Origin: Escherichia coli
Lineage (GTDB): Bacteria; Pseudomonadota; Gammaproteobacteria; Enterobacterales; Enterobacteriaceae
Assembly: GCF_003018255.1 (NCBI RefSeq)
Contig: NZ_CP027440.1
Length of the DNA stretch: 64,000 nucleotides
Direction: 5' to 3' (one strand)
In this document: positions 3,238-37,731 of the stretch, piece after piece
Numbering within the stretch: the stretch's first letter is position 1
How the letters are laid out: each line of letters starts with the position of its first letter
Translations under genes and position numbers: made by a program
Notes under the pieces: generated by a model
Seen by the model: the letters and a program-made list of their open reading frames with translations, nothing else
Told to the model about the DNA's origin: nothing
Database searches by the model: none

Positions 3238-4098
3238 TTAATTATGATTACGCATTACCCCTTCCTGAACGGTCGAGGCAACCAGCACGCCATCCTGGGT
3301 ATAAAACTCACCGCGCACAAAGCCGCGAGCGCTGGACGCCGAGGTGCTCTCCACGCTATACAGCAGCCATTCATTCAAATTAAACGGGCGATGGAACCAC
3401 ATGGAATGGTCAATGGTGGCAATCTGAATCCCCGGTTCGAGAAAACCGATGCCGTGCGGCTGTAAAGCTACCGGCAGGAAATTAAGATCAGAAGCGTAAC
3501 CGAGCAGATACTGATGAACGCGCAGATCATCCGGCACGTTACCATTTGCGCGGATCCACACCTGACGATGCGGTTCTGCGACGTGCCCTTTCAGTGGGTT
3601 ATGAAACTCCACCGGACGGACTTCAAGCGGACGATCGCAGATGAATTTATCTTTCAGCACTGGCGGCAGCAGGTGCGCCAGCGATTGGGCGATTTGCGTT
3701 TCCGAAGGCAGGCCATCAGGCGCTGGCGCGGACGGCATTGTTTTTTGATGTTCGAAACCCGCTTCTGGTGCCTGGAAAGAGGCAGTCATATAAAAAATCG
3801 GTTTGCCGTTTTGAATAGCAGCAACCCGGCGGGCGCTGAAGCTGTTACCGTCACGCAGCGTTTCGACATCATAAATAATCGGCTTCTTACTATCGCCTGG
3901 GCGAAGAAAGTAGCTGTGAAACGAATGTACCAGCCGCTCTTCAGGGACGGTCTCTTTTGCAGCATACAAGGCCTGACCCACGACCTGGCCGCCAAACACC
4001 TGGCGTAAACCTAAATCTTCACTCTGGCCGCGAAAGAGTCCTTCCTCAATTTTTTCCAGATTTAACAATGTCAGTAAATTTTTTAGCGCCTGACTCAT
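3238..4098 (-). CDS. tesB: Acyl-CoA thioesterase II
   Basis: Product [31 protein letters not shown]...; start taken at internal Met of ORF 3238..4182. Confidence 0.9.
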
Positions 4099-9643: not shown

Positions 9644-10149
9644 AACGCGTCCCCTTCTTAGCGGTTGAACTAACGGACACCTTTCGGGATGGAAAAAACT
9701 TACTGACCTGGACTTGCCCTCTCGTTTGTTAGCTTAACTATAAGCCACTCTTTGCAGGTTTTCATCGCATTATTACGAAAAATTACAATTAGGAAGGAAG
9801 CGGGACAGGACTCACTTTTTCATACTAGCACTAACCCGCAGCAGGTAAAAGCAGTTTGCTCGAACTGTTCATAACATTTCAGGATTATCGCCAGATGAAA
9901 TTGGTAACACTAATACCAGGATTGCTCTGAATATGACGTAATAACCGAGGAATGAATAAAGAATTACCGTAAATAATTAAGAATAGCCTCTAAATGATTA
10001 TGGATTATTAAATCTATTAGCGCTACTTAATATAAATTAACTAACAATCAGTATTTTTTATGAATTTTATACGTGTTTAATACTGGTTTTCGTATGAGAT
10101 CCTGAGTTGGTGGTTCAATGACTCCTTAATGTTCGTCGGTTATGCATAA

Positions 10150-10178
10150 AAAAGGCCGCTTGCGCGGCCTTAGTGATT
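10150..10178 (-). terminator. Rho-independent terminator downstream of acrB
   Basis: GC-rich hairpin ggccgcgcaagcggcc followed by T-run on the minus strand just after the acrB stop. Confidence 0.6.
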
Positions 10179-10188
10179 ACACGTTGTA

Positions 10189-13341
<3,153 letters not shown>

Positions 13342-33695: not shown

Positions 33696-35348
33696 ATGAA
33701 ATTATTGCAGCGGGGCGTGGCGTTAGCACTGTTAACCACATTTACACTGGCGAGTGAAGCTGCTCTGGCGTATGAGCAGGATAAAACCTACAAAATTACA
33801 GTTCTGCATACCAATGATCATCATGGGCATTTTTGGCGCAATGAATATGGCGAATATGGTCTGGCGGCGCAAAAAACGCTGGTGGATGGTATCCGCAAAG
33901 AGGTTGCGGCTGAAGGCGGTAGCGTGCTGCTACTTTCCGGTGGCGACATTAACACTGGCGTGCCCGAGTCTGACTTACAGGATGCCGAACCTGATTTTCG
34001 CGGCATGAATCTGGTGGGCTACGATGCGATGGCAATCGGTAATCATGAATTTGATAACCCGCTCACCGTATTACGCCAGCAGGAAAAGTGGGCAAAGTTC
34101 CCGTTACTTTCTGCCAATATCTACCAGAAAAGTACCGGCGAGCGCCTGTTTAAACCATGGGCGCTGTTTAAGCGTCAGGATCTGAAAATTGCCGTTATTG
34201 GCCTGACGACGGATGACACAGCGAAGTTAGGCAACCCAGAAAACTTCACCGATATTGAGTTCCGTAAGCCCGCCGATGAAGCGAAGCTGGTGATTCAGGA
34301 GCTGCAACAGACAGAAAAGCCAGACATTATTATCGCGGCGACCCATATGGGGCATTACGACAATGGTGAGCACGGCTCTAATGCACCGGGCGATGTGGAG
34401 ATGGCACGCGCGCTGCCTGCCGGATCGCTGGCGATGATCGTCGGTGGTCACTCGCAAGATCCGGTCTGCATGGCGGCAGAAAACAAAAAACAGGTCGATT
34501 ACGTGCCGGGTACGCCATGTAAACCGGATCAACAAAACGGCATCTGGATTGTGCAGGCGCATGAGTGGGGCAAATACGTGGGGCGGGCCGACTTTGAGTT
34601 TCGTAATGGCGAAATGAAAATGGTTAACTACCAGCTGATTCCGGTGAACCTGAAGAAGAAAGTGACCTGGGAAGACGGGAAAAGCGAGCGTGTGCTTTAT
34701 ACCCCTGAAATCGCTGAAAACCAGCAAATGATCTCGCTGTTATCGCCGTTCCAGAACAAAGGCAAAGCGCAGCTGGAAGTGAAAATAGGCGAAACCAATG
34801 GTCGTCTGGAAGGCGATCGTGACAAAGTACGTTTTGTACAGACCAATATGGGGCGGTTGATTCTGGCAGCACAAATGGATCGCACTGGTGCCGACTTTGC
34901 GGTGATGAGCGGAGGCGGAATTCGTGATTCTATCGAAGCAGGTGATATCAGCTATAAAAACGTACTGAAAGTGCAGCCATTCGGCAATGTGGTGGTGTAT
35001 GCCGACATGACCGGTAAAGAGGTGATTGATTACCTGACCGCCGTCGCACAAATGAAGCCAGATTCAGGTGCCTACCCGCAATTTGCCAACGTTAGCTTTG
35101 TGGCGAAAGACGGCAAACTCAACGACCTGAAAATCAAAGGCGAACCGGTCGATCCGGCGAAAACTTACCGCATGGCGACATTAAACTTCAATGCCACCGG
35201 CGGGGATGGCTATCCGCGCCTTGATAACAAACCGGGCTATGTGAATACCGGCTTTATTGATGCCGAAGTGCTGAAAGCGTATATCCAGAAAAGCTCGCCG
35301 CTGGATGTGAGTGTTTATGAACCGAAAGGTGAGGTGAGCTGGCAGTAA
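33696..35348 (+). CDS. ushA: UDP-sugar hydrolase / 5'-nucleotidase (periplasmic)
   Basis: 550-aa product with signal peptide and metallophosphoesterase motifs (LHTNDHHGH, GNHEFD). Confidence 0.95.
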   Translation: MKLLQRGVALALLTTFTLASEAALAYEQDKTYKITVLHTNDHHGHFWRNEYGEYGLAAQKTLVDGIRKEVAAEGGSVLLLSGGDINTGVPESDLQDAEPDFRGMNLVGYDAMAIGNHEFDNPLTVLRQQEKWAKFPLLSANIYQKSTGERLFKPWALFKRQDLKIAVIGLTTDDTAKLGNPENFTDIEFRKPADEAKLVIQELQQTEKPDIIIAATHMGHYDNGEHGSNAPGDVEMARALPAGSLAMIVGGHSQDPVCMAAENKKQVDYVPGTPCKPDQQNGIWIVQAHEWGKYVGRADFEFRNGEMKMVNYQLIPVNLKKKVTWEDGKSERVLYTPEIAENQQMISLLSPFQNKGKAQLEVKIGETNGRLEGDRDKVRFVQTNMGRLILAAQMDRTGADFAVMSGGGIRDSIEAGDISYKNVLKVQPFGNVVVYADMTGKEVIDYLTAVAQMKPDSGAYPQFANVSFVAKDGKLNDLKIKGEPVDPAKTYRMATLNFNATGGDGYPRLDNKPGYVNTGFIDAEVLKAYIQKSSPLDVSVYEPKGEVSWQ

Positions 35349-35356
35349 TCCGAAAG

Positions 35357-35380
35357 TGCCGGATGTTCGCATCCGGCACA
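35357..35380. terminator. Bidirectional hairpin terminator between convergent ushA and ybaK
   Basis: gtgccggatgttcgcatccggcac perfect stem-loop. Confidence 0.7.
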
Positions 35381-35384
35381 ATGC

Positions 35385-35879
<495 letters not shown>

Positions 35880-36862: not shown

Positions 36863-36994
36863 ACGACCTCCCTTTGTGAAATATCATGCTAGCGCGCGGG
36901 GAGGGATGGCGCAAATGGAGTTGATTGTTGCACTTGCGCACAGTGCTTGTGTGCATTACAATGATTAAATAATGGACAAGGAGATGAGAGAGGA

Positions 36995-37297
36995 ATGGCT
37001 CAAAAGAAAAATATAAGGAGTTTTCGTGATGCCTGGTTGGCTGATTTTTTTGTCCATTCAACGCCACATCGAAAGATCCCTGCTGAAATCCATACCACGT
37101 TATCACGAAAGTTGGACATCATTAATGCTGCCACTTCTCATCGGGATTTACGCTCCCCTCCGGGGAACCGATACGAAGAGTTATCCGGGAAATTACAGGA
37201 ATACTCCTCCATTAGAGTGAATAAACAGTACCGACTGATTTTTAAATGGGTTAATGGCAAGGCCGAAGAATTGTTTTTAGACCCACACAACTACTAA
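36995..37297 (+). CDS. HigB/RelE-family type II toxin (putative mRNA interferase)
   Basis: 100-aa product with HigB-like layout (...NRYEELSGKLQEYSSIRVNKQYRLIFKWVNGKAEELFLDPHNY); 35 bp upstream of HTH gene ybaQ. Confidence 0.7.
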   Translation: MAQKKNIRSFRDAWLADFFVHSTPHRKIPAEIHTTLSRKLDIINAATSHRDLRSPPGNRYEELSGKLQEYSSIRVNKQYRLIFKWVNGKAEELFLDPHNY

Positions 37298-37332
37298 AAC
37301 ATAGCTGTCGTATTGACGAGAAAGGTAAAACT

Positions 37333-37674
37333 ATGAAACAGGCAACAAGAAAACCGACGACACCCGGAGATATTCTTCTCTATGAATATCTGGAACCGCT
37401 CGATTTGAAAATCAATGAGTTAGCAGAGTTGCTGCATGTTCATCGTAATAGCGTCAGTGCACTGATCAATAACAATCGTAAACTCACCACTGAGATGGCA
37501 TTCCGTCTGGCGAAAGTTTTTGATACCACAGTCGATTTTTGGCTAAACCTCCAGGCGGCAGTTGATCTTTGGGAAGTTGAAAACAACATGCGTACCCAGG
37601 AAGAATTGGGACGGATTGAAACAGTGGCTGAATATTTGGCACGCCGTGAAGAGCGTGCAAAAAAGGTCGCGTAG
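37333..37674 (+). CDS. ybaQ: HigA-like HTH (XRE-family) DNA-binding protein, candidate antitoxin
   Basis: 113-aa product with HTH (INELAELLHVHRNSVSALINNNRKLTTEMAFRLAKVF). Confidence 0.85.
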   Translation: MKQATRKPTTPGDILLYEYLEPLDLKINELAELLHVHRNSVSALINNNRKLTTEMAFRLAKVFDTTVDFWLNLQAAVDLWEVENNMRTQEELGRIETVAEYLARREERAKKVA

Positions 37675-37731
37675 AATAATTTCCCTATAACGGATGCGCC
37701 ACCCTAAAGCAGTGCATCCGCAATGATGTAC

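Follow-up and report, generated by a model that had tools for sequence, protein, structure and literature searches.

For ribosome-dependent cutting at A-rich codons, the reference toxin is P. vulgaris HigB. It is encoded with HigA on plasmid Rts1 (PDB 4MCT, 4YPB and others) in a toxin-first arrangement, and the helix-turn-helix (HTH) antitoxin represses the pair through inverted repeats over the promoter. The same gene order is found in the GraT/GraA pair of P. putida (PDB 6F8S, 6F8H, 6FIX), whose graTA operator combines a central palindrome with distal sites. Two GraA dimers bind there cooperatively, on opposite faces of the DNA, each dimer placing one of its HTHs on a central half-site and the other on a distal site. 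Escherichia coli K-12 has a chromosomal, toxin-first HigB/HigA pair of its own (YgjN/YgjM), of the same class as the pair described here but at another locus, and its toxin belongs to a Pfam family other than PF05015.

YbaQ came into view separately. The K-12 protein was already called a solitary antitoxin in 2007 (RASTA-Bacteria), and its binding sites and motif in that strain were later described by ChIP-exo (Gao et al., 2018). In a survey of 18 E. coli strains, ybaQ proved essential in five, which belong to phylogroups B2 and F and carry an intact toxin gene, higB-1; in CFT073, where higB-1 is truncated, ybaQ is not essential (Rousset et al., bioRxiv 10.1101/2020.05.25.114553). The same authors reported that CRISPRi of ybaQ in strain S88 leads to strong overexpression of higB-1, that the higB-1 promoter holds the YbaQ motif of Gao et al. 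(2018), and that most phylogroups, K-12 included, lack higB-1.

The locus considered here lies in a window of 64,000 nucleotides, the whole stretch of DNA that was analyzed, from an E. coli chromosome. It is the locus of Rousset et al., between ybaP and copA in B2 and F strains, seen in another strain and without substantive difference. Since the S88 locus differs from that of the window by only 3 nucleotides in 869 (99.7% identity) and by a single toxin residue (R50W), the S88 experiments apply to it. Very probably, the two genes make up a HigB/HigA-type operon, a chromosomal toxin-antitoxin system of type II whose toxin belongs to the PF05015 family. RefSeq annotates both genes as a toxin-antitoxin pair in more than a thousand genomes (1265) and the pair has been described in print, so that it is not novel; with the genetics published in 2020/21, the initial annotation made a correct call on a known system, which carries little weight as a discovery. 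The study by Rousset et al. is said to have appeared later in Nat Microbiol, in 2021. What is added here is small: a conserved operator of four tetramers, the age of the toxin-less allele, and the repeated decay of the toxin across genera.

Gene order and family membership of the pair

The gene order in the window is ushA-ybaK-ybaP-higB-ybaQ-copA (Table 1), with 35 nucleotides between the higB stop and the ybaQ start. RefSeq gives the same coordinates for the two open reading frames (ORFs) at the identical locus of E. coli strain 104, where the 869-bp higB-ybaQ region is 100% identical to that of the window, and labels the products “type II toxin-antitoxin system RelE/ParE family toxin” and “ybaQ: HigA family addiction module antitoxin.” An intact 100-residue ORF 35 bp upstream of a 113-residue ybaQ, in the toxin-first order of HigBA, was what the initial annotation had read from the sequence; the ORFs and the gap are as it gave them, and the order recurs in the homologous pairs described below. 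Across 24 kb of the window (25000–49000), the highest identity to the complete E. coli genomes of the collection is 99.5%, with APEC O2-211, 20Ec-P-124, D10, and 181.1 among the best matches. On the upstream side, ushA (33696–35348) adjoins ybaK (35385–35864) in the window, an arrangement shared with strain 104 and K-12; S88 carries, at positions 10014–11314 of locus L023, two additional genes between them, for a hypothetical protein and a DUF6896 protein, at the place of window positions 35349–35384.

Table 1. Coordinates of the higB-ybaQ locus and its elements within the window.
Feature	Position	Strand	Description
Allele-specific segment	36924..37332		409 nt with operator, promoter, higB, and the spacer to ybaQ; K-12-type “solo ybaQ” strains have 76 nt of unrelated sequence in its place
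Putative YbaQ operator	36930..36954		25-bp dyad GCAC-N4-GCAC-N1-GTGC-N4-GTGC centred on 36942; from conservation in homologous promoters
Candidate sigma-70 promoter of the higB-ybaQ operon	36934..36962	+	-35 TTGCGC (36934-36939), 17-nt spacer, -10 TACAAT (36957-36962); from conservation
higB-type toxin gene	36995..37297	+	ATG start, 100 aa, MAQKKNIRSF...LFLDPHNY, intact; “higB-1” of Rousset et al.; RefSeq WP_000057523.1
T7 run inside higB	37045..37051	+	T6 in Nissle 1917, giving a toxin frameshift; RefSeq flags the Nissle copy “frameshifted”
ybaQ	37333..37674	+	113 aa; HigA-family antitoxin and XRE-type HTH repressor; C-terminal ClpXP degron ...RREERAKKVA
Hairpin between convergent ybaQ and copA	37691..37720		9 bp; RNA fold -14.3 kcal/mol, z = -3.3 against shuffles; without T-run

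The toxin matches the Pfam model PF05015.19 (HigB-like_toxin) at E 3e-32 and 111.4 bits, its residues 9–98 covering positions 2–91 of the 91 in the model. By this full-length profile match it is a member of the HigB-like family, within the RelE/ParE superfamily. It also matches PHROG 3066, a phage-protein family labeled “toxin of TA system” (E 1.6e-32). Its closest solved relative by sequence in the PDB is GraT (6F8S_B; 59.7 bits, E 2.8e-15), with which it shares the motifs LRSPPGNR and SIRVN.Q.RL.F, although their identity is only about 40% and GraT ends in DYH where the toxin of the window ends in DPHNY. P. vulgaris HigB matches weakly by sequence (E 0.02, 26–27% identity), and the K-12 HigB chain is not among the PDB sequence matches of the toxin. 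A search of NCBIfam returned no specific model for it, the YoeB and RelE matches all being below threshold.

An AF2 model of the toxin, made from 12 sequences, reaches a pLDDT of 86.8. It predicts helices at residues 13–21, 30–45, and 49–53 and strands at 70–74, 79–86, and 89–97, that is, N-terminal helices packed on a C-terminal antiparallel sheet, and in this model the toxin has the RelE/HigB microbial RNase fold. The top Foldseek matches are to P. vulgaris HigB (TM 0.82–0.85, rmsd 1.4–1.6 Å over 91–94 columns), the best structural counterpart of the predicted fold; that toxin is plasmid-borne, the pair of the window chromosomal. GraT matches with a TMt of 0.86–0.89, and RelE3, YafQ, and YoeB are weaker fold matches. 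The N-terminus of GraT is disordered and serves as a derepressor; in the model of the window toxin, residues 13–21 form a helix. A HigB/RelE layout had been suggested from the ORF alone, together with a profile search against those families; that search has now been run, and its significant HigB-family hit, the GraT match, and a predicted fold at TM 0.85 all bear the suggestion out.

The C-terminus of the protein departs from that of the reference toxins. The toxin terminates in D96-P97-H98-N99-Y100, so that it has D-P-H-x-Y, with the histidine kept, where HigB and GraT have the canonical D-Y-H. This ending is retained throughout the enterobacterial clade in a MAFFT alignment, and the motifs SPPGNR and YRLIF are conserved across genera. 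H98 apparently falls on one residue of the DYH triad in the MAFFT alignment and on another by the end of the Pfam match. The conserved R80 aligns in MAFFT with the arginine of WRITF in HigB, whereas His54 of P. vulgaris HigB is not conserved; neither this catalytic residue nor the C-terminal D90-Y91-H92 of P. vulgaris HigB, where the active site is predicted near His92, has a residue-for-residue counterpart in the toxin of the window. Divergent higB alleles of E. coli differ by 5–6 nucleotides yet by only 1–2 amino acids, which fits purifying selection.

YbaQ scores 105.3 bits against TIGR02607 (antidote_HigA equivalog), whose cut-off is 47.7, a match that marks it by profile as a HigA-family HTH antitoxin; the role of XRE-type antitoxin partner assigned to it earlier thus finds support. 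It is identical to the solved K-12 YbaQ (PDB 2EBY) and matches the structures of GraA, of HigA from P. aeruginosa and E. coli, and of VapI, the GraA and HigA matches lying at E 1e-9 to 1e-11 (GraA at 3e-10, and K-12 HigA, PDB 2ICP, at 3e-9). Homologues of YbaQ also form the phage family PHROG 1381 (E about 1e-30). The same protein (WP_000806442.1) stands in the records of strain 104, K-12, Nissle, and S88, and in two divergent toxin-positive strains. Synthetic biology uses its C-terminal peptide as a standard tag for degradation by ClpXP/ClpAP. The tag is reported to go back to work by Flynn et al. in 2003. The ending KK[VA]A, or a close variant of it, is present at the C-termini of all the antitoxin homologues, and such a degron fits a proteolytically labile antitoxin. 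No ClpXP degron is known for GraA, in contrast to YbaQ.

Relatives of the pair were collected by a scan with YbaQ as the query, one genome per species. It gave 17 loci: three at ybaP-copA, 13 at other enterobacterial sites (in Trabulsiella, Citrobacter, Enterobacter, Kluyvera, Sodalis, Erwinia, E. albertii, and other Escherichia), and one in a Caldilineaceae genome. A HigB homologue lies directly upstream of the YbaQ homologue in all 13 enterobacterial loci and in the distant Caldilineaceae locus, with gaps of 31–78 nucleotides in those whose toxin ORF is unbroken. Relative to the window pair, toxin identity (61 to 79%) and antitoxin identity (66 to 83%) rise and fall together, which argues that higB and ybaQ form a cognate unit rather than a toxin captured beside an unrelated regulator.

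Operator and promoter

A palindrome upstream of higB, gcacttgcgcacagtgc, had been put forward as an autoregulatory operator at about 36928. It is located at 36930–36946, with arms GCACT and AGTGC of 5 bp each around a 7-nt spacer, so that the coordinate needed correction; the operator role itself is supported, both by the conserved 25-bp dyad to which the palindrome belongs and by the published derepression. Taken alone, the palindrome does not rise above chance, its pattern being expected 3.1 times per shuffled window at up to 3 mismatches, and an inverted-repeat search of the window did not list it. What makes it significant is that 13 homologous pairs of other Enterobacterales, with unrelated flanks, have the same element equally far upstream.

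This can be seen in an ungapped alignment of 57 nt around “GCACTTG” from 14 promoters, those of the window and of the 13 homologous pairs (Escherichia, Citrobacter, Enterobacter, Kluyvera, Trabulsiella, Sodalis, and Erwinia). The consensus reads aTGCACTTGcGCAC.GTGCat..GTGC..TA..aT and stands in otherwise unrelated flanking sequence. The dyad is present in 14 of 14 promoters, and the four tetramers are kept in 12 or more of these. In the window these are GCAC at 36930–36933 and 36938–36941, then a single A, then GTGC at 36943–36946 and 36951–36954. The element may equally be read as two overlapping GCAC-N9-GTGC palindromes, at 36930–36946 and 36938–36954, the second of which also appears as a minus-strand self-match of the palindrome pattern.

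TTG (36934–36936) and TAnnnT (36957–36962) keep a constant spacing in the 14 aligned promoters and are likely, from this conservation, to be parts of the -35 and -10 boxes. A sigma-70 consensus scan of the window did not call the higB-ybaQ promoter, because its -35 box matches the consensus at 3 of 6 positions. The dyad, which overlaps both the inferred -35 box and the spacer, can be assigned as a putative YbaQ operator; this is supported by its conservation and by the rise of higB-1 expression that Rousset et al. saw on knocking down ybaQ.

In layout, a central inverted repeat with two outer copies, the dyad recalls the graTA operator, although the cores differ (TAACGTTA in graTA, GCAC-N-GTGC in the window). 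By analogy with GraA, YbaQ may bind as two dimers, and the four tetramers offer a concrete DNA target for asking whether it does.

Proposed mechanism and alternative explanations

In the mechanism proposed here, YbaQ dimers would bind the GCAC/GTGC dyad and, because this element overlaps the -35 box and spacer, would thereby repress transcription of the operon. YbaQ would also bind the HigB protein and neutralize it, as family knowledge suggests, and would itself be turned over by ClpXP through its C-terminal degron (...AKKVA). Were YbaQ to fall, free HigB would enter the ribosomal A site and cleave mRNA, and growth would stop, as with P. vulgaris HigB and GraT. The activity of the toxin as a ribosome-dependent mRNA endonuclease is in this scheme an extrapolation from its homologues. 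That it is harmful unless YbaQ is present has support in the literature, ybaQ being essential only where higB-1 is intact. Inducing the ORF alone or with ybaQ, and testing YbaQ on the upstream palindrome, had been suggested as experiments; they have in part been done already, in that the essentiality of ybaQ has been tied to an intact higB-1 and derepression has been seen on knock-down. In B2, F, or related pathogenic E. coli (ST131, ST95, APEC), deletion or silencing of ybaQ requires that higB be removed as well, whereas in K-12 ybaQ is a harmless orphan.

The same molecular mechanism could have been selected for something other than stress response or addiction, namely abortive infection against phages or the exclusion of mobile elements. 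Both proteins have homologues forming phage families (PHROG 3066 and 1381, at E about 1e-30), and the homologous pairs occupy different chromosomal sites in each species, which suggests mobility. Against this, PADLOC gave no match for the toxin and only marginal HTH matches for YbaQ, and this absence of a defence-system match leaves a defence role unsupported; the only flanks of the pair are ybaP and copA, neither of them a mobile-element or defence gene. An anti-phage role is accordingly unlikely, though it is the best placed of the alternatives.

It is less probable still that YbaQ acts chiefly as a transcription factor of the host, with a regulon in which higB would be only one target, so that essentiality in B2 and F strains would arise from derepression alone, without neutralization of the protein, and the two genes would not form a classical type II pair. 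The scores of YbaQ far above the curated HigA antidote cut-off, its homology to GraA and HigA, which were crystallized with their toxins (6F8S, 4MCT), and the strict placement of 13 of 13 enterobacterial homologues beside co-diverging toxin homologues all speak for an antitoxin. What gives the idea some substance is that YbaQ is 100% identical in toxin-less strains and K-12, that it has ChIP-exo sites and a motif in K-12, that the allele without toxin is old, and that regulation in GraTA is itself atypical, the toxin acting as a derepressor. The identity of YbaQ in the absence of a toxin, along with its other K-12 ChIP-exo sites, suggests that it may have a role besides that of antitoxin.

Equally improbable is that the toxin ORF is an inactive relic, open by chance or only of late, which cleaves no mRNA and leaves YbaQ an effectively solitary regulator: although 4161 of 5426 genomes lack the toxin, which is also frameshifted in Nissle 1917 and disrupted in 4 of 13 homologous pairs, and although its canonical C-terminal DYH is altered, the ORF is full-length with a full-length profile match, DPHxY, SPPGNR, and YRLIF are kept across genera while substitutions among the E. 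coli alleles are mostly synonymous, and ybaQ is essential beside a nearly identical intact toxin gene but not beside a truncated one.

Alleles and decay of the module

Of 5426 complete E. coli genomes, 1265 carry the toxin ORF, always as a single chromosomal copy at 95–100% identity, whereas ybaQ has a match in 5422; some genomes lack both genes. In E. coli as a whole the module is falling into decay, with ybaQ alone in about three quarters of the genomes and a frameshifted toxin in some B2 lineages. About 7 of 60 evenly sampled toxin-positive genomes gave the same 302-nt match as Nissle, a rough estimate of how often the shortened T-run occurs, the frameshift being verified in Nissle alone.

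The allele without toxin was defined by aligning the locus pairwise to that of K-12 NEB 5-alpha and to those of three Escherichia lineages other than K-12, the intergenic regions being compared directly. Between ybaP and ybaQ there are 470 bp in the window and 137 bp in K-12. The initial annotation knew of no annotated toxin partner at this locus in K-12; the ORF is truly absent there, and not just unannotated. The three divergent lineages, in which ybaP has 93–95% nucleotide identity, all carry the solo allele at ybaP-copA. Their 76-nt segment is the same as that of K-12, with a divergence about equal to that of the flanking genes. Such a common segment in divergent lineages makes the toxin-less allele look old, rather than a recent accident of K-12.

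The 76-nt segment was also considered as a decayed remnant of the operator and spacer, a reading that was rejected: the local alignment scores 9.5, against 9.58 ± 1.35 for shuffles. Its best partial matches to the window are colinear (36932–36957 and 37308–37324) but show no significant similarity, and an origin of the solo allele by simple deletion is not claimed. Close to the breakpoint, an imperfect 9-nt inverted repeat (GCGCAAATG at 36909–36917 and CACTTGCGC at 36931–36939, 89% complementary) joins the sequence just upstream of it to the first part of the operator, and may be due to chance.

The copA side differs as well. The ybaQ-copA intergenic region measures 57 bp in the window (37675–37731) and 315 bp in K-12 (locus L002, positions 3480–3794), where about 258 bp of tandem REP/BIME-like repeats (GCCGGATAAGGCGTTTACGCCGCATCCGGC...) are inserted between the ybaQ stop and the hairpin on the copA side. 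Because of this insertion, the toxin-less K-12 allele differs from that of the window on both sides of ybaQ. The hairpin is kept beside copA in K-12, and is a possible terminator.

That the solo ybaQ allele is old and under purifying selection, with YbaQ kept either because it guards against newly arriving higB-type modules, through anti-addiction or immunity, or because it was co-opted as a host regulator, can be offered only tentatively, and is on balance rather doubtful. Modules that might come in do exist in neighboring genera, with the same operator and with toxins 61–79% identical to that of the window.

Decay in the same direction, with the toxin lost first, is found in other species. 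The toxin is broken by a stop or a frameshift, and the antitoxin intact, in 4 of the 13 homologous pairs, those of C. portucalensis, C. koseri, Enterobacter sp. Bisph1, and Escherichia sp. ESNIH1. The locus provides a compact natural series of toxin-antitoxin decay, from the intact pair through a frameshifted and then a deleted toxin to the loss of both genes.

Two further homologous loci deserve mention. In E. albertii NBRC 107761 (locus L021, positions 2598–2634), a perfect heptanucleotide tandem repeat, AATGACC in 5.3 copies, runs into the start codon of the higB homologue. As each unit contains an ATG and its length is not a multiple of three, a change in copy number could shift or switch the initiation of toxin translation. 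Apparently about two copies of a related heptanucleotide unit are present in Escherichia sp. E1V33 (L012). This strain has two ybaQ copies: one at ybaP-copA (L011), without a toxin and with a C-terminus altered by a frameshift after about residue 93, and a second (L012), on another contig, in a full higB-ybaQ pair that is 79% identical.
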